This document shows, piece after piece, positions 13,584 to 42,978 of a stretch of 64,000 nt of DNA. Where the stretch lies: positions 1 to 64,000 of the IMG/VR virus record IMGVR_UViG_3300035670_000079; one strand, written 5' to 3'. Each line of letters begins with the position of its first letter. The stretch's first letter is position 1. Under the pieces are notes generated by a model that saw nothing but the letters and a program-made list of their open reading frames with translations, was not told where the DNA came from and made no database searches. Position numbers and translations under genes: made by a program. The stretch is from a virus.

Positions 13584-13617
13584 TCTCCGTTAGGTTACTC
13601 ATACAGGGGCAATCAGG

Positions 13618-13981: not shown

Positions 13982-13990
13982 GGAGCTAGT

Positions 13991-14215
13991 ATGAGTCCAG
14001 CTAAGTTGCGGCGTAAGCGTAGAGCTTATGATAGGCTTGTTGCTCGCTGGCGTGAGGTTGCTGCATGGCGGGATCGTCTGTTACGGAATAAGCCTAAGTC
14101 TGCCTACGACGAAGGCTGCATTGACTATTATGTGCAGTTGGCACTTAAGCTAGAGGAGGAGGTAAGATACCTCGAAAGGCTTAATGGTTGGCCCGCTATT
14201 CTGCTTAACGGTTAA
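13991..14215 (+). CDS. hypothetical basic protein
   Basis: ATG 13991 follows AAGGAG. It is in frame with track ORF 13967..14215. Confidence 0.55.
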   Translation: MSPAKLRRKRRAYDRLVARWREVAAWRDRLLRNKPKSAYDEGCIDYYVQLALKLEEEVRYLERLNGWPAILLNG

Positions 14216-14241
14216 TTACACCTAATTAGGAGTTGCTTGTT

Positions 14242-19344: not shown

Positions 19345-19992
19345 ATGCGTCGATTAGACGTACCCAAGAGCGTGCTGCTGAAGATAATCTCAGACCGCCC
19401 CTTAATTAACCTGAAGAGTCTAGCTGCTGTTGCCCAGGTTAGCCCTAAAATAGCTCGCAGGCTTTGTAAGGTATATGACCTTAAGCTTGCCGGTAAGCAT
19501 ACGCGATCGGTAGTTAGTTACATCAAGTTAACTGCTGCTGACGTGGAAGAGTTACGGGCTAGGCATGCTGCGGGGGATATGATTAAGGAATTAGCTCGCC
19601 GCTATAAGATTAGCCGCCAACGTATTTATGAGCTGTGCGGTAAGCGGCGTACCCCCGCTGTGCGTGCCCCTAAAGTACGCAAGCCACGCTTAGGTAAGCA
19701 CGGCGAAAAATACAATATGCTACTCGCCGGACCTAAGCTTAGTAATGCACAATTAGCCGCCCAGCTAGGTATAAGCTTAGACAGCCTGTACCAGCTAGAT
19801 TACCGGCGTCGGCTTAATGGTCTGCCTACCATGAATCCTAGTGGTCGTCCTTATAATAGGACACCTCCGGAGGTGGTTAAAGCAATACACGCAGACTTAG
19901 CGGCTGGTTTTAGTGACGCGGCCATAGCTAAGAGGCAAGGCGTACCTAGATACATTCCTAAAGGGTACAGGAAACGCTATGTCAACAGCTAG
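19345..19992 (+). CDS. multi-HTH DNA-binding protein (paralog family member 1)
   Basis: Modules IKELARRYKISRQRIYELCGK and RRRLNGLPTMNP...PPEVVKAI are shared with the next two genes. Confidence 0.6.
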   Translation: MRRLDVPKSVLLKIISDRPLINLKSLAAVAQVSPKIARRLCKVYDLKLAGKHTRSVVSYIKLTAADVEELRARHAAGDMIKELARRYKISRQRIYELCGKRRTPAVRAPKVRKPRLGKHGEKYNMLLAGPKLSNAQLAAQLGISLDSLYQLDYRRRLNGLPTMNPSGRPYNRTPPEVVKAIHADLAAGFSDAAIAKRQGVPRYIPKGYRKRYVNS

Positions 19993-20293
19993 GGATACCC
20001 TTCTAAGTGAGGTCAGTGCGTTAATAGCCGTAGAACCTAACTTAACGCTGGCCGATATTGCCAAACTCTTGCAGTATAACCAAAGATACTTGGGTAGGCA
20101 GCTTAGCGGTACAGCCCTTAGGAAGAAGATACGAAACAAGGCTAGGGGTATGCGTTACTCTAAGCTTAATGCTGCTAAGCACGAAGAGATACGGGCACTA
20201 CGCCTTAAGGGTAAAAAACTGCGAGAACTCGCAGAGCAGTTTGGCGTAAGCCATCAAATGATTTCACAAATATGTTCAAAGGGGTTAAAATGA
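19979..20293 (+). CDS. HTH DNA-binding protein (paralog family member 2)
   Basis: Module KHEEIRALRLKGKKLRELAEQFGVSHQMISQICSKG. Confidence 0.6.
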   Translation: MSTARDTLLSEVSALIAVEPNLTLADIAKLLQYNQRYLGRQLSGTALRKKIRNKARGMRYSKLNAAKHEEIRALRLKGKKLRELAEQFGVSHQMISQICSKGLK

Positions 20294-21231
20294 CAGTTCA
20301 CAGGGATGAGTTGCAGGTAAAAATACAAGAGCTACTGGATAAGGAGCCTACCCTAACTATTAGGGAAATTGCTGACGAGCTTAGACACTGTCAGCAAGTT
20401 GTCAGCGATACTATGAAAGCTATGGGAGTTAAGTCTCTACGCGAGCGTAGGACTGCGGATGCTGTTATGCGTATGCGGATGCTCTTGCAGGATGCGCCTG
20501 AGATTACGTTGGCTGAGCTTGCTGCTAATCTAGGATACTGCGAGGAGTATGTAAGGGGGATGGCTAAAGCTGCGGGCATTACGCTTAAGCGTAAGCCGGT
20601 TGCTGTTAAACGGTATTCTAAACTTAGTTCGGATAAGTACGAAGAGATACGTGTACTTCGCCGCACAGGTAAGACGTTACGCCAGCTTGCTAAGCAGTTC
20701 GGTATAACTTATCAAATGGTATCCCTTATCTGTAAGGGGATTAAGGTTGAACGTGAGCCTAAGCTGATTATACCTAAGGCTGAGCTTGAGCAGGCTATTA
20801 AGTCTGATCCTGAGGCTGATCTTAAGAGCCTCGCAGCTAAATTTAACAGTAGTGTATCCCGTGTACGCTATGCAATACAGCGATACGGGCTTAGTTACAA
20901 GTCTAAGCTGTACCGTCCGTGGAGTAAGCTTAACAAGATGTATGATGCGATATTGGCATCGGGAGTTAAGCTCACTAATAATGAGCTGTATGCTCGCTTA
21001 GGGGTTAGCCGCGTTCACGGCGGGATTATTACGCTGCGTAGGCGACGTAAGGGTTTGCCTACGATGAACCCTAAGACAAAGACTTACTCTCCCGGCCCTA
21101 GTCCGGAGGTGGTAGCACAGGTAGAGGCTACGCTTAATAGCGGGCTTGGTGTAACAGCTACTGCTAGAGAATTAGGTCTTAAGCATACTCAAGTAGCTTG
21201 GATACGGCGGAAGATGAAGCGAGTACGCTGA
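20290..21231 (+). CDS. multi-HTH DNA-binding protein (paralog family member 3)
   Basis: ATG 20290 has an ATGA overlap with the upstream gene. Modules KYEEIRVLRRTGKTLRQLAKQFGITYQMVSLICKG and RRRRKGLPTMNP...SPEVVAQV. Confidence 0.6.
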   Translation: MTVHRDELQVKIQELLDKEPTLTIREIADELRHCQQVVSDTMKAMGVKSLRERRTADAVMRMRMLLQDAPEITLAELAANLGYCEEYVRGMAKAAGITLKRKPVAVKRYSKLSSDKYEEIRVLRRTGKTLRQLAKQFGITYQMVSLICKGIKVEREPKLIIPKAELEQAIKSDPEADLKSLAAKFNSSVSRVRYAIQRYGLSYKSKLYRPWSKLNKMYDAILASGVKLTNNELYARLGVSRVHGGIITLRRRRKGLPTMNPKTKTYSPGPSPEVVAQVEATLNSGLGVTATARELGLKHTQVAWIRRKMKRVR

Positions 21232-24419: not shown

Positions 24420-25661
24420 ATGCCGTTTTTGACTTGTGCTTCTGATTTTGTCTACATGGCCGGTAATACGTCTAATGCCATTGTAGACACATTACCAGCC
24501 GGCGTATATACGCTGGATTACAACAAGTTTAGGGGGTGGTTGTTTACGCCGACTACTATGTACACTGTTCCGGAGACTCTTTACGGTAATACTGTTAGCC
24601 GGGCAGATAGGGTTATGCAGTCGTTTAATGCCCGCAGCACCGGATTAGGTGTACTGCTTAGTGGTAGGAAAGGTGCCGGTAAATCCCTATTGGCCAAGCT
24701 TATTGCTCTTAGGTGCATTGAGGCAGGTATTCCTGTAGTTACTTTGCAGCAGGCTATTGCTGGACAGGACTTTACTGGTCTGATTACGGCTATTAATCAA
24801 CCGTTGTGCGTATTTGTAGATGAGTTTGAGAAACTGTATATTCCCAATGATAATGAGGAGACTAATCCTCAAGCTCACCTACTTACATTGCTTGATGGGG
24901 TTACTCATAATGATAAGAGGCTCTGGCTATTTACTGCTAATAGTTCTGGTAGTGTGCATGAGGCTTTGCTCGGTAGGCCCAGTCGTATTTTTTACAACTT
25001 CAAGTATAAGGGGCTTGATCCGGAGGTGATTACAGAATACTGTAAGGACAACCTCAAGGATAAGTCTAGGGCACAGGACGTACTGGCAATAGGCCGAAAG
25101 CTTGAATTGTTTGAGTTCGACGGCCTGAAGTCAGTAGTAGAGGAGATTAATAGGTATCCTGATATTACTACTGAAGAAATTTTCGCGAGCCTTAATTTGG
25201 GAGATATCAAATATACGCTGGGTGATTGGCAGACTTACCAGATGGATATCGAGATAACCCCTAAAGCTACTCGTGGTAAGTCTCTTCATGAGATTAAGCC
25301 TTCGGTTCCGGCACACCTTAGTAGGAACTATATGCATAGTGTTGGCATGACTGATAGTTTCCGAATGTCGGCTACACTTGAAGCAGGGGAGCATACCTTG
25401 CTGTTTGATAATGCATATAGTTTGATAATTCGTACTATCGAAGGTATGGGTAGGGATGAGGACGATACTACCGTTATTACGGGTGTGTGTCATTGTGTTA
25501 ATGGTAAGTATCTTATTCTTACACCTACGGAAAAGTGTATTCAGAAGTGGCGTGACGATATTGCCCGGAATCTTATGGTCTTAGGTGATACCAAGCATAC
25601 CACAAAGGTGCTGGGTACGTATACAATTCGATTTACACCTGTCATTGATGTGGAGAGGTAA
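24420..25661 (+). CDS. AAA+ ATPase
   Basis: Walker A GRKGAGKSLLAK, Walker B CVFVDEFEK, sensor-1-like LFTANS, and GRPSRIF. Confidence 0.8.
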   Translation: MPFLTCASDFVYMAGNTSNAIVDTLPAGVYTLDYNKFRGWLFTPTTMYTVPETLYGNTVSRADRVMQSFNARSTGLGVLLSGRKGAGKSLLAKLIALRCIEAGIPVVTLQQAIAGQDFTGLITAINQPLCVFVDEFEKLYIPNDNEETNPQAHLLTLLDGVTHNDKRLWLFTANSSGSVHEALLGRPSRIFYNFKYKGLDPEVITEYCKDNLKDKSRAQDVLAIGRKLELFEFDGLKSVVEEINRYPDITTEEIFASLNLGDIKYTLGDWQTYQMDIEITPKATRGKSLHEIKPSVPAHLSRNYMHSVGMTDSFRMSATLEAGEHTLLFDNAYSLIIRTIEGMGRDEDDTTVITGVCHCVNGKYLILTPTEKCIQKWRDDIARNLMVLGDTKHTTKVLGTYTIRFTPVIDVER

Positions 25662-25791: not shown

Positions 25792-25812
25792 GTTTACGCG
25801 CAAAGAAACTTA

Positions 25813-25847
25813 CTCGCAAGCACTTGCAAGTGCTTGCGAGTTTTTTT
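25813..25847 (+). terminator. rho-independent terminator built around the CTTGCAAG core
   Basis: Perfect 11-bp stem ctcgcaagcac/gtgcttgcgag with loop ttgcaa, followed by T7. Confidence 0.9.
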
Positions 25848-25886
25848 ATGCCCATAGCTAGAGTCACTTAGTGTTACACTTACAGA

Positions 25887-26106
25887 GAATTTTAGCACAC
25901 CGAAAATTTTAGCACACCAAAAAATTTTAAGGCCCGGCCGAGCGTAAGCGAGGTGACACAAAGAATAACACATAAGAGAGAGAGAGAGAGAGTATAGAGA
26001 TAGAAGTAAGGCATACAGGTAGGCGCACGCCTATACCAAAAATTTTAAGCGAAGGCCTATACCAAAAATTTTAGCGAAGGCCCGTACCAAAAATTTTAGA
26101 GGCCGG
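25887..26106 (+). repeat. six dispersed copies of (ACC)AAAAATTTTAG
   Basis: Copies lie near 25887, 25902, 25919, 26035, 26061 and 26085. The third and sixth lead directly into box/polypurine units. Confidence 0.8.
25921..26012 (+). repeat. box + polypurine unit 1 (forward)
   Basis: Box ggcccggccgagcgtaagcgaggtgaca is followed by a largely purine stretch that includes (GA)n. Confidence 0.85.
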
Positions 26107-26200
26107 CCGAGCGGAGCGAGGTGACAGTTAAGAGTAATATAAAGAAGAGAAGGAAAGTATAGGAAGAGAGGAGATAGTAGAGGGGGAGTAATAGGTAGTG
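26091..26200 (+). repeat. box + polypurine unit 2 (forward)
   Basis: Box aaaattttagaggccggccgagcggagcgaggtgaca is followed by a ~75-nt A/G-rich tract. Confidence 0.85.
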
Positions 26201-26511
26201 TTCTCGCCCTTTCTGTTGCAAGCCTTGCATAACCCATAACTTCCATAACTTCCCTAGAGTAGACTTTAGTTAGTAGACTTTAGTTCCCTGTTCCCTAGAG
26301 TAGACTGTAATTTTAGTGCTAATTTTAGTAAAAATTGTAGTTTTATAGCTATTTTTATGCGTATTTTGGTCATTTACGAGTAGTTTTAGTACTATTTCTG
26401 GTAGTTTTAGTGAAAAATTTTAGTCTTGGTGCTAACTCACGCACAGCGGGGAATTTTTGGTCGGAATTTTCGGTAAAATTTCTGCTAAAATTCTTGGTAC
26501 GGAATTTTTGG

Positions 26512-26746
26512 TTGCAAGTGCTTGCAATTATGACCTAAAAGACGGTCTGAACTGTAAAAGTGTACACACTTTTAGAAGTAAAAGTTGCAAGCGCTTGCAA
26601 GTATAACCAAAATGATGGTTTGAACTGTAAAAGTGTACACACTTTTAAAAGTAAAAGTTGCAAGCGCTTGCAAGTACAACCAAAATGATGGTTTGAACTG
26701 TAAAAGTGTACACACTTTTTAGTTTCATAATTGCAAGTACTTGCAA
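26512..26746 (+). repeat. 73-bp tandem repeat x3 plus a fourth palindrome
   Basis: TTGCAAG..CTTGCAA palindromes start at 26512, 26585, 26658 and 26731. Each unit also contains aaaagtgtacacactttt, an 8-bp inverted repeat. Confidence 0.9.
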
Positions 26747-26875
26747 GAATAGAGGTGAGCGGAATCAGAATGAAAAATTTTCGCTTATTGTTATAGTTAG
26801 TGGGGCGAGGCCGGCAGAGCCGGCTTAGTGGGTTACGTAGCGGTATAGTTGCGGCTCGTAGTGCGGTTGGGCGTG

Positions 26876-26944
26876 TTAGTGTCTCTTATCTCTGTTCTAA
26901 TCTCATGCCAATTATTAGCACCTCGCTTACGCTCGGCCCGGCGG
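26876..26944 (-). repeat. box + polypurine unit 3 (reverse)
   Basis: cacctcgcttacgctcggcccggc is the reverse complement of the unit-1 box. On + it is preceded by a pyrimidine-rich tract. Confidence 0.8.
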
Positions 26945-26954
26945 TTAAATTTTT

Positions 26955-27040
26955 CGGATAGTCCGCTGCCGAGGCGTTAGCCGAGGTGACACAAAGTAGT
27001 GAGGAGATAGGTAACAAGGTAGTGGAGAGAGATAGAGGCG
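26955..27040 (+). repeat. box + polypurine unit 4 (forward, divergent from unit 3)
   Basis: Box ccgaggcgttagccgaggtgacaca is followed by aagtagtgaggagataggtaacaaggtagtggagagagatagagg. Confidence 0.8.
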
Positions 27041-27162
27041 TGCCACGCTGGTTAATTTTTTATGCGCCAGGTAAAAGCTTGCAAGGCTTGCAAGTGCCCT
27101 CAATAATTTTAGCGGTAGGGATATTTCCGAGGGCTTTATTTTAGTGGGGAATTTATGTACTC

Positions 27163-27240
27163 AAAATTTTAGAGGCCCGGCCGAGGCGTTAGCCGAGGTG
27201 ACACAGATAAGTAATAAGGAGAGGAGTAGAGATAAGAATG
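27163..27240 (+). repeat. box + polypurine unit 5 (forward)
   Basis: Box aaaattttagaggcccggccgaggcgttagccgaggtgacaca is followed by gataagtaataaggagaggagtagagataagaa. Confidence 0.85.
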
Positions 27241-27326
27241 AAATCGAATCAAAAAATTCCCGTTTTCTGTAATGATACTGGAAAATTTAGAAATAGTGGT
27301 TGGGGCGGCGCGTTAGCCGCCCTCCC

Positions 27327-27399
27327 GCCATTTTGGCGTGCTCATTTTGACTGCTCAAAAAATAGGCAGCCATTTTGGCAGGAAATCGGCCAATTTGGC
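27327..27399. repeat. three GCCAWTTTGGC near-palindromes
   Basis: gccattttggc at 27327 and 27369, and gccaatttggc at 27389. Confidence 0.75.
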
Positions 27400-27464
27400 A
27401 GCAAAATCGCGTGCCAATTCTCAAAAATGAGAAAAAAATTTTATTATTATCGAAAATGATAAAA

Positions 27465-27510
27465 AATTTTCCCGAAAGTGAGAAACTTTTTCCCGAAAGT
27501 GAGAAAATTA
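27465..27510 (+). repeat. direct repeat ttttcccgaaagtgagaaa x2
   Basis: Two adjacent copies read directly from the sequence. Confidence 0.8.
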
Positions 27511-27584
27511 TCAGAATTTCGCGGATTGGTATGCCATAATGGCGTGCCAAACTCGCGGCGGTCGCCGGGAATTCTCATTTGTGG

Positions 27585-27672
27585 GAATCTTCTGTTTTTC
27601 CCTTCTCTTTTGTGGGAATTGGCATGCCATTTTATGTAATCTGGATAATTATTATCACCTCGCTCCGCTCGG
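27585..27672 (-). repeat. box + polypurine unit 6 (reverse)
   Basis: tcacctcgctccgctcgg is the reverse complement of the unit-2 box. On + it is preceded by cttctgtttttcccttctctttt. Confidence 0.8.
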
Positions 27673-27780
27673 TAGTGTAGTCAAACTGATACTGCCCGGT
27701 TTCTGACGGACAGTGCCCGGTTTCTGTGCAGTGCGAAGTCAGGGTATTTTCGGCGATCCTCTAAAATAGTTGGTCCGGCC

Positions 27781-27934
27781 TGCCAATTTGACACCCGCGC
27801 GAAAGCGGAGTAAACCCGCTTGTGGACAGCGGTTGACGGCCGGCTCCTAGTGGTCGTCTGCGTCGGCTCCCCTGCGTACACTGAACACATGCCAATTTGG
27901 CACATGCGTCGAAGCGGAGTAAACCCGCTTATGG
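27781..27934 (+). repeat. two ~45-nt copies of tgccaatttgRca...gaagcggagtaaacccgctt
   Basis: Copies lie at 27781-27826 and 27890-27934. Each ends in the hairpin aagcgg-agtaaac-ccgctt. Confidence 0.8.
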
Positions 27935-27958
27935 GCGGGGGCGGGCGGGTGATTTGGT

Positions 27959-28055
27959 TAGCCAAATTTGCATAACCAAATTGGCATAACCAAATTTGCC
28001 GAACCAAATTTGCCGAACCAAATTGGCATAACCAAATTGGCATAACCAAACCTGG
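27959..28055 (+). repeat. 14-bp tandem array x7 (AACCAAATTGGCAT / AACCAAATTTGCCG)
   Basis: Unit boundaries are 27974, 27988, 28002, 28016, 28030 and 28044, plus a degenerate first unit. Confidence 0.9.
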
Positions 28056-28180
28056 AGCGTGCCGCACGTTCACCAGTGTCCGGAGGTGACCTTCTGACGA
28101 TAATTCATAACGTGGCATAATGGCATATCGTGGCAAGCGTATAGTGACACGGGCGGAACTATACACGGGCATCGTCACTC

Positions 28181-28216
28181 TACTGTGTCCGCAGTAGGTA
28201 CTGTGTCCGCAGTAGG
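28181..28216 (+). repeat. 18-bp tandem repeat x2 (tactgtgtccgcagtagg), each an inverted repeat
   Basis: Two exact adjacent copies. Each unit contains TACTG..CAGTA. Confidence 0.9.
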
Positions 28217-28487
28217 TCACGCCCAGCGTGGACCGTAGGTGCCTGCCTTACTAAGCATGCGGCACCTGATGCGATGCTATGGGTCCAGAATCGCCTAGGA
28301 TGCGTTCTGACGCATCGAATCGGCGGACGATATATCCATCGTCCTGATAGGCTATCGTCGATCCTACGCGAAATAAGGTTTTACTTATACTAGGTCACGC
28401 AAGCGGGGACTGGTTGCAAGTGCTTGCAAGTGCAGGACTTGTGACTACGGGTTTCACCGTTGGTACGCGGTTTGCGTTTCTTTATAT

Positions 28488-28532
28488 CACGCCCAGACCG
28501 GCCACGCCCAGACCGGCCACGCCCAGACCGGC
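28488..28532 (+). repeat. 15-bp tandem repeat x3 (cacgcccagaccggc)
   Basis: Three exact adjacent copies. Confidence 0.9.
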
Positions 28533-28691
28533 CACTTGCCGTAGGTGACATGCGAGCATGAATTGAGATTCAGTCTCAGCTAAAAAATTAGTCCAGAAAA
28601 GTAATCGTCTGGGATAGACACTGCCGATACTGGTCGTCATAGTCCGCTTCGTTGGTTGTGTGCTGATGACGCTAACTGAAAGGAATGATTG

Positions 28692-28790
28692 ATGAGTAAG
28701 ACAGAATTCGTGATTGCTCTGTCAGTCGCTGTGATGTGGGCCGCGTGTGTGGCTTACAGTTTCTGTCTGGTTTTCTGTAAGGGGTTTTGA
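28692..28790 (+). CDS. possible 32-aa hydrophobic peptide
   Basis: MSKTEFVIALSVAVMWAACVAYSFCLVFCKGF, preceded by gaaagga. It ends 2 nt before the next ATG. Confidence 0.3.
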   Translation: MSKTEFVIALSVAVMWAACVAYSFCLVFCKGF

Positions 28791-28792
28791 AA

Positions 28793-29167
28793 ATGGCCGA
28801 TGCACGTAATCTTGCTCAGAATCTGGAGTCTCGTTTCAAAGGCAGTCGTCTCGCTGCCGTTGCTGCTGAGTGTCTGGAGTTGTTTCGGCGGGCTGATCGG
28901 CTCCAGAGAGCCGCTCAGTTGGCGTATGATGAGTCAGTGGGTGCTTATGCTGATGCTGATGAGTCCGGCGAACAACCCTACTTGCGGGCTGAGGAGATGC
29001 TTGGACATAGGGCGTGGCAACTCCGGGGGCAGGCGATTGCCTGCCTCAATAGGGAATTGGCCACGCTACCGATTGAGGCTCGGTATAACGTGTTGTCCAT
29101 TGCCTGCGGGCTTGGCGGTGTGCTGGACGATGCCTTGCCGAAGGCTGAAACGGTGCCGGCTCTGTGA
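28793..29167 (+). CDS. hypothetical protein (GC-rich island gene 1)
   Basis: Track ORF 28787..29167. The ATG is at 28793. The sequence is helical and Ala/Leu/Arg-rich, and its codon composition is visibly G/C-skewed. Confidence 0.55.
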   Translation: MADARNLAQNLESRFKGSRLAAVAAECLELFRRADRLQRAAQLAYDESVGAYADADESGEQPYLRAEEMLGHRAWQLRGQAIACLNRELATLPIEARYNVLSIACGLGGVLDDALPKAETVPAL

Positions 29168-29169
29168 GC

Positions 29170-29207
29170 CTGCTGGAAGCAAGTTTGACTCTCATCCGCG
29201 TTTGTTT
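29170..29207 (+). repeat. 38-nt island leader repeat, copy 1
   Basis: ctgctggaagcaagtttgactctcatccgcgtttgttt. It is followed by CCGGAGGTG at 29249. Confidence 0.85.
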
Positions 29208-29286
29208 CCTGCCCGGCGTGGTGCCGGGCGGGGTTTCATGGTCGGCTTCCGGAGGTGATCCGGGAGCCAGATAAGGGGTGTGTGCT

Positions 29287-29964
29287 ATGTCTACGATTAG
29301 GTGCTGGAATGCGTCTGCGTTTGCTCTGCTGACGATGCCTCTGCCTGTCGGGGCAGATGGACTCGTGCGGAGTCGTGACGTGCGGTCCTCTCTGCGGGGT
29401 GCGGGGTTGATCGAGTGCACCCGGCTCCGGGAGTCGGTCGAAACCGGCGGGCTGGAGCGTGTGTCTCTGGCAGCGACGCTGCGGGAGGGTGATACTCTCA
29501 CTCTCCCGGCGGGCTGGACGGTTGCGGGGGCAGTCCCCCGGAGCAAGCTGGTTCATGTGGTACGTGGGGAACTGCGGTCCCTCACGGCATCAATTGATGC
29601 CGCGGTGCACCACTACGCCGCCCTCGCCGGCGATGTCTCCGATGCCGAACGCAAGGCTTCGCGGGATGATGCCTATCGACTGATGCGTGAAATGGGCGAG
29701 AGCATCGAGTCCCTCGTTCCGGCGGGGCGGTTCGGCGTGCTGATGGTGCCGCCGGCGTGGCTGATGGCCCTGCTGCCGTCAGCCTTCCGGGTCAAGCCGT
29801 CAGCGGGCGGACGCTACCGTGGTCCGGGCATCACCGCTCCGGCCGTGTCCCTGCTGTCGGCGGACGATCTGATCGTCCCGTCTGCGAGTGACTCACAGCC
29901 GTCTGCCGGTGAGTCGCTGGAAGTCGTCTTCGCTGAAGCTGCGGCGGACTTGCTCAACGCCTAG
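29287..29964 (+). CDS. hypothetical protein (GC-rich island gene 2)
   Basis: Track ORF 29278..29964. The ATG is at 29287. Confidence 0.55.
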   Translation: MSTIRCWNASAFALLTMPLPVGADGLVRSRDVRSSLRGAGLIECTRLRESVETGGLERVSLAATLREGDTLTLPAGWTVAGAVPRSKLVHVVRGELRSLTASIDAAVHHYAALAGDVSDAERKASRDDAYRLMREMGESIESLVPAGRFGVLMVPPAWLMALLPSAFRVKPSAGGRYRGPGITAPAVSLLSADDLIVPSASDSQPSAGESLEVVFAEAAADLLNA

Positions 29965-30010
29965 CTGTTGCAAGTGCTTGCCAGTGCGGGGCGGGCCACT
30001 TCGGTCCGCC

Positions 30011-30048
30011 CTGCCGGAAGCAAGTTTGACTCTGTTCCGCGTTTGTTT
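30011..30048 (+). repeat. 38-nt island leader repeat, copy 2
   Basis: ctgccggaagcaagtttgactctgttccgcgtttgttt. It is followed by CCGGAGGTG at 30053 and ATG 30068. Confidence 0.85.
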
Positions 30049-30067
30049 TTGTCCGGAGGTGCTGAGA

Positions 30068-30292
30068 ATGATCGAAGTCAAGCGTGAACCGTGGGGCGTC
30101 CGCCAGTATGTCCGGCGTCTGCAATGGGAGGGCGGGGCAACCATCCCCGCCTGCGTCTGGCGGGGATGGCGGGAAGCCAAGCGGGACCGTGTGCGGTCTG
30201 CCGTACGGTCTGCGGGCGGCCGCTTCCGCATTGAAGCGGTCCGCTCCGAGGAAGGGCGGCGGATTGTTTCCGCCGTTATCGTTGAGTTTTGA
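30068..30292 (+). CDS. hypothetical basic protein (GC-rich island gene 3)
   Basis: ATG 30068 lies 8 nt after GGAGGTG. It is in frame with track ORF 29888..30292. Confidence 0.5.
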   Translation: MIEVKREPWGVRQYVRRLQWEGGATIPACVWRGWREAKRDRVRSAVRSAGGRFRIEAVRSEEGRRIVSAVIVEF

Positions 30293-30426
30293 ATAATTCT
30301 GGGATAACCGATATGCCGTGAGATAATTTTATCACGCGGCATATCGGTCCGCCATTCCGGCAGGCTGTCAATCTGACAGTTTGCCGGGGGCATGCCAAGA
30401 TGGCAGGTCCGGCGGGTGCGCAAACA

Positions 30427-30605
30427 GTCAATATGTATTTTTTTGCGTATTTTTTATTTTGCGTATTTTTTTGCGTATTTTTTATTTTTCAAACTTTTAG
30501 TCAATATGTATTTTTTTGCGTATTTTTTATTTTGCGTATTTTTTTGCGTATTTTTTATTTTTCAAAACTGGCAACCAATACGTATTTTTTTTTATTTTTC
30601 AAAAT
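30427..30605 (+). repeat. AT-rich 73-bp tandem repeat (~2.4 copies) built of GCGTATTTTTT sub-repeats
   Basis: Units start at 30427 and 30500, with a partial third from ~30573. Confidence 0.9.
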
Positions 30606-30671
30606 TCTAACTCTCTCAGCGTCCGCGAACAGGCATGCTCGAAACAATACATATTGCTCGAAAGAGCTAAC

Positions 30672-30716
30672 GTGCTTGGCGTGCTCCCGGTGCTTGACGT
30701 GTTCGACGTGCTTCGG
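30672..30716 (+). repeat. 9-bp tandem repeat x5 (GTGCTTNNC)
   Basis: The five units are gtgcttggc, gtgctcccg, gtgcttgac, gtgttcgac and gtgcttcgg. Confidence 0.8.
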
Positions 30717-30788
30717 CAGTTGCAAGACTTGCAAGCGTGCTACCTTAGTTAGGTGCGCGAAAACGGCAGATACGTGTAAAGTACGGAT

Positions 30789-30817
30789 TTGACTTACGAT
30801 TCACAGTGTGCTATAAT
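30789..30817 (+). promoter_or_regulatory. near-consensus sigma70 promoter TTGACT-N17-TATAAT
   Basis: Sequence is ttgact tacgattcacagtgtgc tataat. The -10 lies about 90 nt upstream of ATG 30909. Confidence 0.75.
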
Positions 30818-30826
30818 ACACTAGGG

Positions 30827-30874
30827 ATGTATCCTACGTTGAGACGTATCCTACGTTACGATGTATCCTGTATT
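30827..30874 (+). promoter_or_regulatory. three 17-bp-phased repeats (GTATCCTACGTT-like) in the 5' leader; candidate operator
   Basis: atgtatcctacgtt at 30827, acgtatcctacgtt at 30844 and atgtatcctgtatt at 30861, immediately downstream of the -10. Confidence 0.6.
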
Positions 30875-30908
30875 AAGACATACCTCAAACTAAAAAGGTG
30901 CTAGAAAG

Positions 30909-33161
30909 ATGCCCAGTTTTCCAAGTAAACGCCCGTATGGTGACAGTAGTGAGTCTTACAGTAGCAGTGAGTCTTACAACAGTGAGTCTTACAGCGATAA
31001 TGAGCTTGACAACAGTGATAGTGACAACAGTAGTCCTGTAGATAACGCTGAAGATAATAGTTCCGCTAGTAAAAGTTTATCTGTAGCGGGTGTTCTGACA
31101 CGTGCCGAAGAGGTGCATGCCAGCATTGCCACTAATTGGGTAGTACTTATATCTGATAGCCCTGCACCCACTACTCCTGAACGTATGCTCAGAGAAGCTG
31201 CAAAGCTTGGCGAGACTACTAAGCTCGGTGAGACTACTGAATTCAGTGAGGCTGCTCTGAATGGGCGTAGTTTAACACCGGAAGAAACCGCTAAAAGAGA
31301 TGCATTGCTGGATTTTGGGTTAATGGAGAGATTCCACAATGTAGCTTCCCAAGTCGCGGAATACTTCAAATTAGATAGGGCTTGTGCCTTGCGGCTGCGT
31401 AAGGCAACTGCCGCAGATTTTCAAGAGATAGCTAAAGGTAAGTGTAGTCCTAATAACCTTGCGGATCTCACGCTTGTGCGGTTAAGCCCATGTATTAGTG
31501 AGGGTTATGACCTTGGTGAGCTTTGCCAATGTGATTACAGCCGACACTCCCATACAGTAAAGCTCCTGTGGGATGTGCGGCGGGACATGGAGAAACTCCG
31601 CGATAACCCACACGTCAGACAAGAGGATAAGCCTAAATTGATAGAAGCAAGCCGTAAACTCTACGAAGCTGAGCATGTACTTGAGTTACTGCAATTCAGC
31701 CTTCTTAAATTTGCAAGTGCTTGCAAGCTCGGTGTTGTCACTATGCCGGAGTTGCATTTACCGAAAGACGCACGTGGTAACTTCGTTGCTCCTATGCTTT
31801 ACAGGGAGGAGGAATACGATACCAGCGGTATCCTGATATTGGAGGGGGAATTAATGCCGATGAATGGCGAAGTTCCAAGTAATCCGCGCACATGGCTACC
31901 TTCCAGCGCTAATAGTCGATCTGAATTCACCGAAAATGACTACGAATATCTTAAACATACTGCTAGTGCCGGGCCTTTTCAGCCGCAACCAAATAACTTA
32001 GTTGCTGGCATTCTTGTCAATATCCTGATGAATAACAGCAAAGCTTGCCGTAACTTGACTGACCTTATTCGGGAATTTCCAGTTAGACCTATGGCTGCCG
32101 TACATAATGAGGCTGCTGTACCTAATAACACTGCTGGTATACTCCGTCCGGTAACTCACGTAGTGTTGCCACACTTTGACAGAGCCAGTGTTATCCCTGC
32201 TACTAATTACGCTGTGGTGGAACTTTCGGATAGTGTTGATAACTGTGGGGAAACTATTGAAAACTATGCTTACAATCACCCCGATAATGACGGTCCTGTA
32301 AAACCCCTCACTACTAAGCAGGCTATTCGTAAATTTGGTTATCGCAAGACCGGTGAAATGGGTATTATGTCAATAAGTGATGCCAATCTTGCCACTAGCA
32401 ATGTCACAACCGGAATTACGGAAGTGTTCGGTAATGATGGTATTGAAGTGGATAGGTTTACACTCAATACACGGGAATATCGTCCTGTTGGTATCTCTTC
32501 GTGTAAATTTGAAGATATCTCATTTTTCATAGAAGTTCCGGGCATGCTTACCAGAGCTGCCCTTGCAGATGCCCTGCGTGAGTGCGCTCAAACATATTCG
32601 CATAGGTACACCACTAGTCACGAAGTTTTCATCAATGCTGACAAAAATCTTCGTGATATCCTCAGGCCTAATGAGTACCGCAAAGCGTTGGTAACAGCCG
32701 ATAACTACTATGCCTTTACGTTACGGCAGCCGGAGCAGCGATTAGTGTTTTTTTCTTATGGTTATGTACAGCCGCCGACATTGTCACAGCTTTACTCTAC
32801 TATTATCACTGGGTTAGAGCGTACATGTTACCGTGGGCGGACAATACTTCCTCGCCAATTTGTAGATGGCCGAGAAGTTATGAAATTATCAATTGAAGAC
32901 TTCAGTGCGGACGGGTCGCTTGCACAGCATAAGGTTATAGGTGAGCTTGAGATATCATTGGCTGCGGAACCTCCTATTGAAGATATCCCAGTTCTCGATA
33001 AAGCAAGCTTCGATAAGTATGGTAATCAAACCCGTACCCCCACAATCGTGGGCAAGTACAGCGTTAAAATTGCAAGTCTTGCAACTTTGAAGTTCACACC
33101 TTGTTATGATTCCGCTTATGCTAGTGGTGGCTCTGACGACACTTTTTCTGAAACACTGTGA
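30909..33161 (+). CDS. large hypothetical protein (750 aa) with Ser/Glu/Asp-rich N-terminus
   Basis: Track ORF. It is the first gene after the strong promoter. I recognised no motif. Confidence 0.7.
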   Translation: MPSFPSKRPYGDSSESYSSSESYNSESYSDNELDNSDSDNSSPVDNAEDNSSASKSLSVAGVLTRAEEVHASIATNWVVLISDSPAPTTPERMLREAAKLGETTKLGETTEFSEAALNGRSLTPEETAKRDALLDFGLMERFHNVASQVAEYFKLDRACALRLRKATAADFQEIAKGKCSPNNLADLTLVRLSPCISEGYDLGELCQCDYSRHSHTVKLLWDVRRDMEKLRDNPHVRQEDKPKLIEASRKLYEAEHVLELLQFSLLKFASACKLGVVTMPELHLPKDARGNFVAPMLYREEEYDTSGILILEGELMPMNGEVPSNPRTWLPSSANSRSEFTENDYEYLKHTASAGPFQPQPNNLVAGILVNILMNNSKACRNLTDLIREFPVRPMAAVHNEAAVPNNTAGILRPVTHVVLPHFDRASVIPATNYAVVELSDSVDNCGETIENYAYNHPDNDGPVKPLTTKQAIRKFGYRKTGEMGIMSISDANLATSNVTTGITEVFGNDGIEVDRFTLNTREYRPVGISSCKFEDISFFIEVPGMLTRAALADALRECAQTYSHRYTTSHEVFINADKNLRDILRPNEYRKALVTADNYYAFTLRQPEQRLVFFSYGYVQPPTLSQLYSTIITGLERTCYRGRTILPRQFVDGREVMKLSIEDFSADGSLAQHKVIGELEISLAAEPPIEDIPVLDKASFDKYGNQTRTPTIVGKYSVKIASLATLKFTPCYDSAYASGGSDDTFSETL

Positions 33162-35324: not shown

Positions 35325-36036
35325 AGAAAGCTTCTCTAATCCTTCCGTAGGTGCCCCTATACTGGAATCAGTGGAAGACTTACTAGGTAAGCTCCCTGTA
35401 ATATTCCCCATGTTCCAGCGTCCGACTACGCCGACCTACGTATTAAAGGGGTGTCTGTATAGTGGCAGGACCATCTCCTGTGATCCGCATAGTAGGTCTA
35501 CCACTGAGGAAGATATTAGCGTGTATAATTTCTTTGTAAACGAGTATAGGCACGCTGTAGAAGAGGCCTTAAGACTAGCCTCGCGCCACCATAACACGTC
35601 TGTAATGGAGGTTGCCGCTGGGGTATTCCTCCGGACTATTGAAGGTTGCTATCTTGCTACTTATGATGCTAGTGTGTGGGAGCCGCTCAAGACTCTTACA
35701 TTTTGGACTATGTCGGAATTTATTCGGAACAGATTCTTGGATGTATTCACACAGCATGCCAACACTAGTGGACATCTCAAGCTACACGGTACTTTCCTAG
35801 CCCCCAATATGTACGGGTTACCAATGATTAAAATTGGGTACTATCACCCAGCAGTGGCCTCTAATGGTAATTGTGTCGATTTCTTGGGTAATCTCTATTT
35901 AAATTTCGTGACACGGGGTAGGCCCGTAACTGTTAAATTAGCTGGGCATGGTGATAGTATTGAGGTGGAGTCTGTACAGCTACCTTACATGATGCGCGGA
36001 CAATTTGAAATGCATCCAGAGGCTAGGGGAGTGTAA
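35314..36036 (+). CDS. hypothetical protein
   Basis: Track ORF 35242..36036. The start is uncertain: GTG 35314 overlaps the upstream stop, and ATG 35410 is an alternative. Confidence 0.5.
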   Translation: MSIEESFSNPSVGAPILESVEDLLGKLPVIFPMFQRPTTPTYVLKGCLYSGRTISCDPHSRSTTEEDISVYNFFVNEYRHAVEEALRLASRHHNTSVMEVAAGVFLRTIEGCYLATYDASVWEPLKTLTFWTMSEFIRNRFLDVFTQHANTSGHLKLHGTFLAPNMYGLPMIKIGYYHPAVASNGNCVDFLGNLYLNFVTRGRPVTVKLAGHGDSIEVESVQLPYMMRGQFEMHPEARGV

Positions 36037-36040
36037 GATT

Positions 36041-36613
36041 ATGCCAGATGGTCAGAAGCTGCTAGACGGTCTTTCAGGATACCACTCGCTGTATACAGAC
36101 GGTTCCCTAAATACTGCCCGCAATGCCGGCGGTTATGCAGTAATTGCCCTAGTTAATAGGGGTGGAATAAATTATCCTGAAGTGCTTACCGTAGGTGCTA
36201 TAGCAGGAGCCACTAATAACATAGTAGAACTAGCCGGTATAGGTGAAGCTATGCTATTCTCACCTACATTGATATACAGTGACTCACGCTACGCGATTGG
36301 TACGCTAGCGGAGTGGTCAGATAAGTGGCGAGCTAATGGATGGGCACGCAGTGCTGGCCCGATAGCAAATCTAGCTATTGTAAAAACATTGAATCACGTG
36401 TATAATACACTTCAAACCCATAGCAACTTGCCGACGTTGTTACACGTCAAAGGTCATGCCGGAAATATTGGTAATGAAGCTGCTGACAGTGAATCTCGTA
36501 ATTTCATTGATAGGGCAGATTCAATTCCCAGTATTTCTGCATGGCTAGAGGGCTATAGGCAACGTGCCACACTGGTATTGCAGAGTCTTGGAAGTACTGC
36601 ACCAATCCCGTGA
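36041..36613 (+). CDS. rnh: ribonuclease HI
   Basis: Motifs LYTDGS..GGYAV, NNIVELAGIGEA, SDSRYAIGTL..W...W and VKGHAGNIGNEAAD. Confidence 0.85.
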   Translation: MPDGQKLLDGLSGYHSLYTDGSLNTARNAGGYAVIALVNRGGINYPEVLTVGAIAGATNNIVELAGIGEAMLFSPTLIYSDSRYAIGTLAEWSDKWRANGWARSAGPIANLAIVKTLNHVYNTLQTHSNLPTLLHVKGHAGNIGNEAADSESRNFIDRADSIPSISAWLEGYRQRATLVLQSLGSTAPIP

Positions 36614-37456: not shown

Positions 37457-37600
37457 ATGATAAAGTATTTGGCGATAGTGAGTTTTATTTTAGTCGTTGT
37501 GGCAATACTGCGAATGCGCCTGTTACGTAAACGCTGCAAGTATATGGTCTGGAAAACTGACTCACAACCCCTTCAGAAAAGAACCGGAAATGCCAGTTAA
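37457..37600 (+). CDS. possible 47-aa membrane peptide
   Basis: MIKYLAIVSFILVVVAILRMRLLRKR..., with ATG 5 nt after gaggt. It overlaps the thyX start. Confidence 0.3.
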   Translation: MIKYLAIVSFILVVVAILRMRLLRKRCKYMVWKTDSQPLQKRTGNAS

Positions 37601-38537
37601 AGTCACTGCTGCAAATTTTAGCGTTGAAGTTATCGCTGACACCGTAAATTTAGGACATCGGATTAGTTCAGTGGTTTTGACTTACCCTAGAATTATCCTT
37701 GCTGAGCTTAATACTCATCGTGTTTTTAGTCGTAATTCTGCAAGTAGCCGTGCGATTCCTACTAGGATTATGCTTGAAACCATTAAGAATAGTCCATTTG
37801 TACCTATTAAGATACCTGTACCCGCTCCGGGTATGGCGACTACTAAGTTTATGGAAGATCCTTCAGAAATACTGCGACAACATCAGAAACATCTTGAGTA
37901 TACGCTGGCGTTTGTGCAAGAATGTCTTGATAAGGGTATGCCTAAGAGTCTGGCTAATAGATATCTTGAACCTTTTATGATGGTATCTACCATTGTCACT
38001 GCTACGGAGTGGGCTAACTTTCTCCGCTTGCGTCGGCATAAGGATGCTGAGACTCATTTTACACTGCTTGCGGAGATGACGTTCAGGGCTTTTAGGGCTA
38101 GTACTCCTCGACTCGGCGTAATCCATGCGCCTTTTGCGCTACCGGATGAGTTAGAAGACTTAGAAAGTTGTTATGATAATCCTGCTAAACTGCTGGAGTC
38201 GGCTGCTATGAAGTCTGTAGTAGCCCGCGCAGCGCGCGTGTCCTATTTGAATCACGGTACACCTAAATCTGACGAAGCCGCTATGTTCGATAAGCTTGTC
38301 AGTGGTTCCGGTTTCGGGCACTGGTCGCCACACGAGCACATGGCAATATCTCCTACGCACATGCCATCACATGCCACTAAGTATAACGGCGGTAATTTTG
38401 ATTGGTGGCTGCAACTTCGGCAATTCTTTAATGGTGAGAATCTGCCCGGTCACGTTGATGAGTATCTTGATGCTATGCCGAATGCGTCTGTACCGGAGAC
38501 TATCGCAGATATTCCCATTACGGTTACACTGACATGA
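37590..38537 (+). CDS. thyX: flavin-dependent thymidylate synthase ThyX
   Basis: The ThyX signature (R/T)HRxxSxxxxSxR appears as THRVFSRNSASSR. ATG 37590 is in frame with track ORF 37497..38537. Confidence 0.9.
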   Translation: MPVKVTAANFSVEVIADTVNLGHRISSVVLTYPRIILAELNTHRVFSRNSASSRAIPTRIMLETIKNSPFVPIKIPVPAPGMATTKFMEDPSEILRQHQKHLEYTLAFVQECLDKGMPKSLANRYLEPFMMVSTIVTATEWANFLRLRRHKDAETHFTLLAEMTFRAFRASTPRLGVIHAPFALPDELEDLESCYDNPAKLLESAAMKSVVARAARVSYLNHGTPKSDEAAMFDKLVSGSGFGHWSPHEHMAISPTHMPSHATKYNGGNFDWWLQLRQFFNGENLPGHVDEYLDAMPNASVPETIADIPITVTLT

Positions 38538-38843: not shown

Positions 38844-38872
38844 TTGACAAGCCCGTTAGTGGACGCTACACT
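38844..38872 (+). promoter_or_regulatory. sigma70-type promoter TTGACA-N17-TACACT with TTAGTGGA in the spacer
   Basis: Sequence is ttgaca agcccgttagtggacgc tacact. The architecture matches the promoter at 11112. Confidence 0.6.
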
Positions 38873-39840: not shown

Positions 39841-40181
39841 GACCAGCGTGGCTAACTGACTTCAATGCATTTAAAGCGCTGGTTGTCGGCGTTTTATGTA
39901 GGTTGGATTTAACCGAGGAAATGCTAGAAGATGCCTTCACTGGTCTTACAGTACCTCAAGCTAACTTCAATTATGATGGTTGGAACGACTGGAATACTGA
40001 AAGTGTCTGGATTAGCTGGTTGAAGAATAGGTTGCCAGCATTTCAACCTGTTGCACCTGCGCGTGAGCCTATTCCTTATGCTACCGATGGGTGTAAGGTT
40101 AGACGTAGTGAAGTAGCCGAAATTCAATCACACTTGTGTCGCACAATAGGTCAACGCACTAAGCTTGGAATGGGCCATTGA
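39837..40181 (+). CDS. hypothetical protein
   Basis: Track ORF with an ATGA overlap with the upstream gene. Confidence 0.55.
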   Translation: MRPAWLTDFNAFKALVVGVLCRLDLTEEMLEDAFTGLTVPQANFNYDGWNDWNTESVWISWLKNRLPAFQPVAPAREPIPYATDGCKVRRSEVAEIQSHLCRTIGQRTKLGMGH

Positions 40182-40786
40182 TTACTGATCCTAAGTTGCC
40201 TAGAAATTTTGTAATTGTTGACCTAGAGTTCGCAGACTACACTGTAGCAGTGCGTACTACTGGTAGCTTACCGTGTCCACTGCAAATTGGTGCCACTCAC
40301 GTCGCCTTTGACGGGGCATTCGAGGTAGTGTCGGAATACTCCACTAACATAATTCCGCATGATGCCTCGCATGTAACTGAGGCGATACAAAACTTCCTTG
40401 AGTTAGACTTGCAAGACTTGCAACGAACTGGTAAACCTCTATCTGAAGTTTTGACGGAGTTTAAGGCTTTTCAAGGTCATAAGCCACTGTGGTCATTCAC
40501 TGCGATAGATGCCCTGATTTTACACTACTGGTATCAAAAATGCAGTATGACTTCCTTACATCTGGCTAACCATACGGATGTTGCCTCATACGCACAAGCT
40601 CTAGGTAATTACCCAACTGCCCCTAGTTTGAATGCGCTGTGTAAGTCACTGGGAATTGAAGTTAGGCCGGGGCATCACGCATTAACACACGTTAAGCTGG
40701 TTGTGAGAGTGTTGGAAGTTCTGCTGGGGCTTGATACTATTGAGGAAAAGCCTAGTTCAGATTCCTTTAAGTTGTTTGAGTTTTGA
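40178..40786 (+). CDS. DEDD-type 3'-5' exonuclease
   Basis: Exo I FVIVDLEF, Exo II-like FTAIDALIL, and Exo III-like GHHALTHV. Confidence 0.6.
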   Translation: MITDPKLPRNFVIVDLEFADYTVAVRTTGSLPCPLQIGATHVAFDGAFEVVSEYSTNIIPHDASHVTEAIQNFLELDLQDLQRTGKPLSEVLTEFKAFQGHKPLWSFTAIDALILHYWYQKCSMTSLHLANHTDVASYAQALGNYPTAPSLNALCKSLGIEVRPGHHALTHVKLVVRVLEVLLGLDTIEEKPSSDSFKLFEF

Positions 40787-42382: not shown

Positions 42383-42978
42383 TGGCTAAGAAAAAACCAT
42401 TAGAACTTATGTTAATGTCTGACGCCGAGTTAGATGCTTACATAGAGGATCTCGGAAAGTCTGAGGAGCGACTGGCAACTGCCATGCTTATCAGGGATTG
42501 TCCGGCATACGCTAATCTGATAAAGCGAATTGCTGCACATGCCTGTAAACTCAGCAGCACGGTCAAAGAGGCATCTGCGTTGTCCTTTACCGATGGTGAT
42601 GAAGTAGCTGCTAATAAAGAGCGTTTAATTGAGAATATCCGTAGACTTAAGGCCAAGATAGATTCTCTGCCTAATAACGAACATGGGGCGAAGTTAAAGC
42701 TATTCTATGGAGAAGGTCTTAAGAAGGCTGAAGTAGAGTTGCTTGGTTGTAATATGACTCCGAAGATGCGTAAGCTGACAGATGAGTTTGGTAAGCTTAA
42801 GCAAGACTTGCAAGTGATGCTTACGCAGTGGAACAATACACCTGAGTTGCAGTCACACGATATTTTCCAGTATTTCCCGGTATTGGTGACAATATTTAAT
42901 TGCACCACAGTGTCTAGTTTACCTGCGGATGCTAGTGATGACTTTTCTGAAGCGGAGACTTCAAATGTCGGGCAGTGA
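42382..42978 (+). CDS. hypothetical protein
   Basis: Track ORF with a TAATG overlap with the upstream gene. Confidence 0.55.
   Translation: MAKKKPLELMLMSDAELDAYIEDLGKSEERLATAMLIRDCPAYANLIKRIAAHACKLSSTVKEASALSFTDGDEVAANKERLIENIRRLKAKIDSLPNNEHGAKLKLFYGEGLKKAEVELLGCNMTPKMRKLTDEFGKLKQDLQVMLTQWNNTPELQSHDIFQYFPVLVTIFNCTTVSSLPADASDDFSEAETSNVGQ

Follow-up and report, generated by a model that had tools for sequence, protein, structure and literature searches.

A repeat-dense, mostly non-coding hub in a ~101-kb phage genome: probably the main control region and perhaps a replication start site

Large phages rarely keep kilobases of non-coding DNA. In T7, the left end (concatemer junction) spans ~1 kb and combines a 160-bp terminal repeat, short repeat arrays and strong host-type early promoters. 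The herpesvirus oriLyt is a complex, kilobase-scale non-coding region containing repeat families, purine/pyrimidine tracts, divergent transcription units and AT-rich palindromes. The terminal repeat of phage T5 includes three untranslated regions (629 bp, 188 bp and 1.2 kb) with direct and inverted repeats, palindromes and a few interleaved genes (10.1101/866236), and a 2.7-kb non-coding origin region with RepA_N iterons has been described in the Vibrio satellite PLE (PMC7145576). Here, we analyze a region of this kind, positions 25848-30908 (hereafter the hub), in a stretch of 64,000 nucleotides (nt) that forms positions 1 to 64,000 of the IMG/VR virus record IMGVR_UViG_3300035670_000079 (hereafter the window). 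The record belongs to a phage of bacteria with a genome of ~101 kb (101,068 bp in the longest contig listed for the cluster of its ATPase), of which 37 kb lie outside the window. We report that the hub is real, that it is probably the main control region of the genome, and that it is perhaps the site where replication starts.

The hub shares individual properties with each of these systems. Like the T5 repeat, it has non-coding DNA on a kilobase scale, nested repeats and palindromes, small early genes and distant inverted copies of its elements; in contrast to T5, whose untranslated regions belong to a terminal repeat of mapped position and include eight paired DnaA boxes, its DnaA boxes are at chance level and a terminal location is putative. 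The two regions have no sequence similarity, and no T5 record occurs among the listed matches of the large terminase, which are mainly phages of Gram-positive hosts. With iteron origins (PLE, the lambda origin, P1 and plasmid iteron replicons) it shares semi-palindromic direct repeats centred on A/T tracts, an AT-rich melting segment, small genes and kilobase-scale non-coding DNA, but it lacks an initiator homologue, its main array has a period of 14 bp instead of ~17-22 bp, its repeat families number more than a dozen instead of one or two, and its origin role is putative. The likeness to oriLyt is one of architecture, since oriLyt belongs to eukaryotic viruses and works with different proteins. 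Finally, the T7 genome is likewise unidirectional and likewise has repeat arrays and early promoters between its last and first genes, whereas the hub extends over 5 kb, encloses a gene cassette and has only a putative terminal repeat.

A reproducible region of dense repeats and little coding sequence

Local direct 11-mer repeats occupy 25.7% of the hub, compared with 3.5% of the rest of the window and 1.1% (at most 3.1%) of shuffled hub sequence, which amounts to a 7-fold and a 23-fold excess, respectively. Open reading frames (ORFs) of at least 60 amino acids (aa) on the + strand, to which all credible genes belong, cover 97% of the sequence outside the hub and 42% inside it, and the only + strand ORF gaps longer than 200 nt in the window, 25792-27237 and 27460-28786, are both located in the hub. 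An earlier note on this DNA had described a repeat-dense, mostly non-coding stretch in an otherwise gap-free genome, bounded by a terminator and a promoter and coding only in an island rich in guanine and cytosine (GC). All of this holds: Tandem Repeats Finder and a repeat finder recovered every family at or near its place, the island contains four genes (32, 124, 225 and 74 aa), and both flanking signals are real (Table 1). The terminator closes the upstream operon, and the 64 kb contain just two other strong ones on the + strand. The further proposal of at least ten unrelated repeat families was partly right, in that more than a dozen families are present; they are fewer than had been listed and not all of them are unrelated, because the six boxes form a single hairpin family and the GCCAWTTTGGC sites share a half-site with the 14-bp array.

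Several ways in which coding sequence might have been overlooked were considered and rejected. Reading through TAG, TGA or TAA as a reassigned stop leaves the region closed, the minus-strand ORF of 179 aa and the ORFs of 73 and 130 aa have a flat codon-position GC periodicity, and a frame of 152 aa is spurious. Thus, dense protein coding, which would have undone the earlier description, is not indicated by stop reassignment or codon periodicity, as far as the letters can tell.

Assembly artefact, another possible undoing, was ruled out, because overlapping contigs of separate assemblies jointly reproduce nearly all of the hub. Two JGI contigs, L006 (23101-30015, one mismatch) and L008 (26278-32115, two mismatches), read across most of it, the ENA contigs L014 (16744-27936) and L004 (27975-38677) are 100% identical to the window, and Logan contigs from three runs are identical wherever they overlap it. 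In this way, 25848-30015 and 30537-30908 are covered at least twice by separate assemblies (JGI, ENA, Logan) at 99.97-100% identity, and 30016-30536 rests on two contigs, L004 and L008; none of the contigs compared spans the whole hub. The populations are near-clonal (99.3-100%), and therefore identity across samples is uninformative about selective constraint.

Repeat arrays, palindromes and oriented hairpin modules

When duplex stability is predicted along the window in stretches of 150 or 200 bp, the two lowest places belong to the hub: 30422-30621 (~26% GC) ranks as the least stable and 26228-26427 as the second. The former is a candidate DNA-unwinding element by its predicted stability, and both correspond to the adjacent AT-rich element expected of an iteron origin. 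Between these minima, approximately 20 half-sites of the TGCCAA/TTGGCA type, including the GCCAWTTTGGC palindromes and the 14-bp ×7 array, are concentrated in 27325-28140; 11 of the window's 51 exact hexamers lie within these 820 nt, and nowhere in the window outside the hub are there semi-palindromic sites, tandem or dispersed, with an A/T tract at their centre. By its repeat pattern, the 14-bp array is a candidate iteron or centromere-like site. The 15-bp ×3.2, 9-bp ×5 and 18-bp ×2 arrays are further candidates, and the periods of all four are atypical; the five degenerate 9-mers span 30670-30715.

Other repeats are built from palindromes. Each unit of the 73-bp ×3.3 array contains three of them, a TTGCAAG doublet, AACCA..TGGTT and AAAAGTGT..ACACTTTT; fold z-scores range from -2.0 to -4.3, and one hairpin switches from A-T to G-C between copies. 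The GC-rich non-coding palindromes at 28181-28535 give equally good folds on either strand (z about -2.2 to -2.3 for this stretch, and -2.2 to -2.7 across the GC-rich palindromes and the 18-bp and 15-bp repeats), and therefore point to symmetry at the DNA level rather than to a strand-specific RNA. Three repeat pairs previously given as 19, 45 and 38 nt are present with other dimensions, namely as a 21-bp ×1.9 repeat, a 59-nt pair, again with its hairpin, and a 39-nt pair. The arrays are contiguous and spacer-free and the nearby genes scanned include no defence family, so that neither a CRISPR nor a type III toxin-antitoxin array was found.

The most distinctive elements are six modules (u1-u6), four on the + strand (u1-u4) and two on the - strand (u5 and u6), with u5 and u3 back to back. 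All follow one plan: one to three AAAATTTTAG sites, a conserved hairpin and a purine-rich tail of 50-80 nt. The hairpin reads GCC-GA-GC-[GUAA or GGA]-GC-GA-GGU, and its 3' arm forms a Shine-Dalgarno-like CGAGGUGA; in u3 and u4, the stem is kept, one G:C pair is added and the loop is GUUA. Because the spacing between the CCGAG and CGAGG arms varies from 10 to 12 nt, a hairpin fits better than tandem protein-binding sites. The tails are conserved in composition and not in sequence, are predicted to be unstructured (z ~0) and have no consistent start codon; the four rightward ones are the most purine-rich stretches of the window. A degenerate box pattern gave 30 single matches in IMG/VR, which is the chance level, and the few loci with two matches were high-GC coding DNA. 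In the hub, the best match to Rfam 15 was RAGATH-30, with 22.6 bits against a gathering threshold of 59.5 (E = 0.54).

Three motifs recur throughout the window and also occur in the hub. The 9-mer CCGGAGGTG is present in 25 copies against 0.22 expected, 20 on the + strand and five on the - strand, both at gene starts, where it acts as the Shine-Dalgarno sequence, and within coding sequence (e.g. at 365, 2884, 19862-19875, 28080, 29249 and 30053); at 19862-19875 it is part of the 14-bp palindrome CACCTCCGGAGGTG. Its oriented, genome-wide spread recalls a stoperator or Chi-like pattern. The TTGCAAG palindrome (CTTGCAAG), with 27 copies against 1.26 expected, occurs seven times in the hub and builds the left terminator; it often forms doublets 9-10 bp apart (e.g. 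at 13967, 16891, 44482, 46953 and 51720), which in several genes sit immediately ahead of the Shine-Dalgarno sequence and in other cases lie within coding sequence. TTAGTGG or TTAGTG motifs cluster at two sigma-70-type promoters, at 11020-11210 and 38844-38872, where they lie within the spacers TTGACAGGTCGATTAGTGGATGTTAAAAT and TTGACAAGCCCGTTAGTGGACGCTACACT, and TTAGTGG is found in the hub at 26797, 26825 and 27141. Judging from these positions, they are probably operators for a phage regulator.

Possible roles: replication origin, genome end or regulatory RNA

Our best guess, a tentative one, is that the hub is a cis-acting control region of composite make-up, with a lytic replication origin beside a strong early promoter. 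It would serve as the main such region of the genome, with the terminator that closes one long rightward transcription unit on its left and the strongest early promoter on its right, and would contain an iteron-type origin. The TGCCAA/TTGGCA-type sites of 27325-28140 and the neighbouring palindromes would load a phage DNA-binding protein, possibly one of the four cassette ORFans or one of three multi-helix-turn-helix (multi-HTH) proteins encoded at 19.3-21.2 kb; melting would follow at either of the two least stable AT-rich segments, and the six modules would prime or regulate replication, either as short non-coding transcripts or as single-strand elements. We infer protein binding, melting, priming and origin activity from several features: the duplex-stability minima, the semi-palindromic arrays, the setting between terminator and promoter, the succession of arrays, then small genes, then an AT-rich repeat, which mimics an iteron replicon, and the flanking DNA-metabolism genes for RNase HI, ThyX and a DEDD exonuclease. 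Of the roles suggested earlier for the region (origin, partition, regulation or proximity to the ends), origin or regulatory centre is partly supported and partition is unlikely, while nothing separates an origin from an end.

A considerable set of results weighs against this proposal. Searches with the cassette and early ORFans gave no match to a Rep, O, RepA or DnaA family, and no recognizable initiator, helicase, primase or polymerase gene lies beside the hub, although the initiator may be too divergent to recognize. The neighbouring ATPase was rejected as initiator or clamp loader and assigned to the classical unfoldase clade: a confident model of its residues 1-266 matches Bcs1, YjoB, proteasomal Rpt, Cdc48 and FtsH, and does not match DnaA, Orc, DnaC or clamp loaders. 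A DnaA-box origin was likewise rejected, as TTATCCACA-type boxes with one mismatch are at chance level (21 in the window against 15.8 expected, one of them in the hub). A period of 14 bp is unusual among iterons, a single origin would need far fewer repeat families, and GC skew and skew at third codon positions (GC3) drop locally across the hub with no change of sign. A hybrid-versus-duplex energy scan with hybrid parameters from the literature made only u2 and the G-quadruplex site stand out; R-loop priming therefore receives no special support, because the scan fails to single out all six modules. As for conservation, no relatives of the phage were found in any collection searched. The coverage of the ENA contigs, a contig-level measure for one sample taken from the contig names (Table 1), is weak evidence for an origin, at 32-34x to the left of 27.95 kb and 14-26x to the right. 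It would fit a copy-number maximum in the hub or to its left, or else a terminal block that is duplicated in part, and its gradient is confounded by strain microdiversity and short contigs.

A possible alternative, to which we give rather less weight, is that the genome has its physical ends within the hub, probably in the form of direct terminal repeats, with the hub's repeat families serving terminase recognition, concatemer processing or staged DNA injection and the cassette genes entering the cell first. The genes run one way, and the hub separates a major terminator from the strongest early promoter, as ends do in T7-like layouts; strong sigma-70 promoters are also present at 3815 and 11112, so that the hub is not the sole early start. 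In the large myoviruses (Herelleviridae) of Listeria, Staphylococcus, Bacillus and Enterococcus, the packaged DNA has long direct terminal repeats and not cos ends. The best matches of the large terminase (TerL), at ~21% identity, are mostly phages of the same genera, and a terminal-repeat boundary in the hub is therefore possible. The comparable untranslated repeat regions of the T5 terminal repeat (10.1101/866236) point in the same direction, while T5, unlike the hub, has a DnaA-box cluster. The 14-bp ×7 array could suit a ring-shaped small terminase. The coverage of the ENA sample steps from 34x to 26x at ~27.95 kb, a ratio of 1.3 and not 2, and confounded as described above. 

The contigs speak rather against termini in the hub. 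Several assemblies pass through all or most of it, and the contig ends, at 26424, 26634, 27936/27975, 28506, 30015, 30455 and 30537, mostly differ between independent assemblies, with no single coordinate common to them at the contig level. All but 26424 and 30015, where no repeat is long enough to account for the break, fall in repeats or beside the G-quadruplex motif, on either side of which the two ENA contigs stop. The end at 30015 is shared by L006 and L013, which may come from two assemblies of a single sample, and an apparent end at 27926 was discarded as a library artefact with a Nextera adapter tail. Moreover, 37 kb of the genome lie beyond the window. The more specific suggestion of a cos site, derived from the GpA-type terminase, proved weak: cos sites are expected beside the terminase genes and TerL is 14 kb from the hub, which several assemblies read through.

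Somewhat less likely still is a purely regulatory or non-coding-RNA function with neither origin nor end. The modules would then be small RNAs of ~90-120 nt in which a hairpin at the 5' end and a Shine-Dalgarno-like GAGGUGA precede an unstructured purine tail and a second hairpin at the 3' end. As decoys or sponges, they would take up ribosomes or purine-binding proteins such as Hfq or CsrA, and the arrays would be operators through which the multi-HTH regulators time early transcription. This is consistent with the orientation of the modules, with a hairpin conserved in sequence next to unstructured tails conserved in composition alone, and with the hairpin and T-run that end u3. Three multi-HTH proteins are encoded, the TTAGTGG-type motifs in promoter spacers elsewhere suggest that at least one repeat family is an operator, and the early promoter is bracketed by the 9-mers, a TTGCAAG doublet and a 17-nt ×2.4 leader repeat. 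On the other hand, no promoter can be assigned to any module, no Rfam family matches, and the GC-rich part folds equally on both strands, as DNA palindromes do. Sigma-70-like sites are not enriched in the hub (16 against 11 ± 3.9 expected), and the idea of a sigma-70 promoter cluster was dropped. It is doubtful, and a bolder claim, that the modules, with their GNRA-like hairpin loop and a 3' arm that comes close to a perfect Shine-Dalgarno sequence, are a new class of phage non-coding element, either start-codon-less ribosome or Hfq/CsrA decoy RNAs for host takeover or primers of bidirectional replication; if they give rise to priming transcripts, their orientation, four to the right and two to the left, would mean bidirectional priming.

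The origin, genome-end and regulatory readings, in this order of preference, are not mutually exclusive. It is improbable that the hub is a largely functionless recombination scar, i.e. foreign GC-rich DNA and debris of local duplications caught between operons. The cassette and its non-coding flank (~27.7-30.4 kb) do have 50-70% GC compared with 45% in the genome, and the cassette proteins are all ORFans; the repeats, however, are ordered, oriented and palindromic, the gene starts of the cassette carry motifs of the phage itself (CCGGAGGTG and TTGCAAG doublets), and 3.4 kb of idle DNA would be unusual because the rest is 97% covered by long + strand ORFs. Least of all do we expect a plasmid-type partition or maintenance centre of a phage-plasmid, for which the 14-bp array and dispersed palindromes, resembling centromere repeats, and a ParB-like protein could be cited, since the ~50 ORFs scanned include no ParA, ParM, integrase, protelomerase or plasmid Rep, the ParB-like gene lies 12 kb away next to packaging genes and is not confirmed by Pfam at E <= 0.01, and no related prophage or plasmid was found.

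Genes and features around the hub

The GC-rich cassette consists of four ORFan genes and carries the phage's own CCGGAGGTG and TTGCAAG motifs; its last two genes are preceded by the 39-nt repeat and CCGGAGGTG. For the cassette and the early ORFans, no match to a defence-system, NCBIfam, Pfam or PHROG family was detected, no homologue was found for the 225-aa protein, and its AlphaFold model has a predicted local distance difference test (pLDDT) score of 46.6, too low for use. Two other interpretations were rejected: a defence or anti-defence cassette, as PADLOC matched none of the four cassette genes, the ATPase or three early genes, and an insertion with target-site duplications around the GC-rich segment. 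The first gene after the strongest early promoter (30909-33161) encodes a 750-aa ORFan with a repetitive, Ser/Glu/Tyr-rich N-terminus, for which tblastn, a word index and full HMMER searches, covering 5.8 billion clustered proteins and 1.84 billion representatives, found no homologue apart from its own fragments.

The phage as a whole is isolated. Megablast against 50,697 phage records gave no match, TerL has no close relative in IMG/VR, and the nearest relatives of the ATPase are at most 45% identical and lie on contigs that lack the hub. The window starts and ends within genes, the latter encoding, as the Logan contig L028 shows, a tape-measure protein of 1,545 aa (PF10145). At the window start, a perfect 18-bp ×7.1 repeat in coding sequence (1-127) adjoins 343 aa (371-1399) that match CobT-like PHROG families; this CobT-like protein was not found in the metagenome collection. 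The 18-bp repeat breaks the Logan assemblies, as does a 252-bp ×2.8 repeat (54107-54819) within an 804-aa gene downstream of the head genes. At 3815-3869 and 43999-44057, a sigma-70-like promoter immediately precedes a strong hairpin and its T-run, after which come a Shine-Dalgarno sequence and a gene; this arrangement resembles an attenuator or antitermination switch, or else a tiny RNA. One contig, L033 (ERZ4201046), differs from the window in a 453-aa gene (436 aa in L033), where ~61 nt of the window (14553-14613) stand unaligned against 10 nt of the contig, and in eight mismatches within 13148-14552; its remaining 2.1 kb and all other contigs compared match the window at 100% or with no more than two differing bases.

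Table 1. Features of the hub and its surroundings, with contig coverage along the window
Feature	Position	Strand	Remark
Strong intrinsic terminator, built from the TTGCAAG palindrome	25812-25841	+	13-bp stem, then T-run
AAAATTTTAG-type sites	25886-25930, 26038-26099, 26412, 27163		
Module u1	25886-26018	+	three AAAATTTTAG sites, hairpin box 25937-25954, purine tail
Module u2	26029-26195	+	25-bp ×2.8 repeat with TTTTAG sites, hairpin box 26106-26122, purine tail
AT-rich, easily melted segment	26228-26510		short repeats, TTTTAGT sites, AATTTT tracts with ~12-bp period
Short direct repeats	26234-26285		
Five TTTTAGT sites	26310-26427		
73-bp ×3.3 array	26511-26751		
Weak promoter-like site, then two TTAGTGG motifs around a GC hairpin	26770-26831	+	
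Module u5	26850-26957	-	hairpin box 26920-26937
Module u3	26958-27059	+	hairpin box 26968-26987, purine tail, small terminator-like hairpin and T-run 27037-27059
Module u4	27160-27237	+	TTTTAG site, hairpin box 27180-27199, purine tail
Scattered TGCCAA/TTGGCA palindromes	27325-27640		31-nt inverted repeat pair, TGTGGGAAT ×2
GCCAWTTTGGC sites	27327, 27369, 27389, also 27533, 27891		
21-bp ×1.9 repeat	27467-27506		
Module u6	27560-27778	-	hairpin box 27657-27672; TTTTAG element displaced by ~80 nt that hold TGCCCGGTTTCTG ×2
59-nt ×2 repeat	27781-27839, 27890-27948		each copy with TGCCAATTTG site and hairpin
Canonical G-quadruplex motif GGGCGGGGGCGGGCGGG	27933-27949		directly before the 14-bp array
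14-bp ×7 array	27952-28064		CCAAATT(G/T)GC(A/C)(T/G)AA
18-bp ×2 repeat	28181-28216		
TTGCAAG doublet	28414-28433		
15-bp ×3.2 repeat	28488-28535		
Cassette of four ORFan genes	28692-30292	+	55-70% GC, genome 45%
Cassette gene, 32 aa, hydrophobic	28692-28790	+	independent gene callers
Cassette gene, 124 aa	28793-29167	+	codon-position GC periodicity
39-nt ×2 repeat	29169-29207, 30010-30048		
Cassette gene, 225 aa	29287-29964	+	codon-position GC periodicity
Cassette gene, 74 aa, basic	30068-30292	+	codon-position GC periodicity
42-bp near-perfect palindrome	30307-30348		20-nt arms; directly after the cassette
AT-rich 73-bp ×2.2 repeat	30426-30591		GTATTTTTTTGC-type 12-mers
Five degenerate 9-mers, (A/G)CGTGCT(T/C)N, then TTGCAAG doublet	30670-30736		upstream of the early promoter
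Near-consensus sigma-70 promoter	30789-30817	+	TTGACT-17-TATAAT and TG, 11/12 matches
Leader after the early promoter	up to 30908	+	17-nt ×2.4 repeat, ahead of the 750-aa ORFan gene
tRNA	16074		sole Rfam match reaching threshold
Three multi-HTH proteins	19345-21231	+	
AAA+ ATPase adjoining the hub	24420-25661		labelled a replication protein in some records
RNase HI	36005-36613	+	
ThyX	37497-38537	+	
DEDD exonuclease	40178-40786	+	
ParB-like protein	42929-43612		PHROG match; no Pfam confirmation at E <= 0.01
Putative small terminase, 284 aa	44510-45364		HTH-bearing
GpA-type large terminase (TerL)	45201-46952	+	followed by portal, protease and major capsid protein
ENA contigs	13-17 kb		SPAdes k-mer coverage 31.8
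ENA contigs	16.7-27.9 kb		SPAdes k-mer coverage 34.3
ENA contigs	28.0-38.7 kb		SPAdes k-mer coverage 25.6
ENA contigs	39.1-43.5 kb		SPAdes k-mer coverage 24.3
ENA contigs	48.8-51.5 kb		SPAdes k-mer coverage 14.3
ENA contigs	55.4-58.3 kb		SPAdes k-mer coverage 19.5

In the T5 terminal repeat, satellite origins and oriLyt, non-coding kilobases run replication, packaging or injection, and the hub is the single place for such functions in an otherwise gap-free, unidirectional genome of ~101 kb. If the origin or the ends do lie in it, the hub would provide a compact set of new protein-DNA recognition modules, and the modules that join a Shine-Dalgarno hairpin to a polypurine tail would be new whatever role they prove to have.

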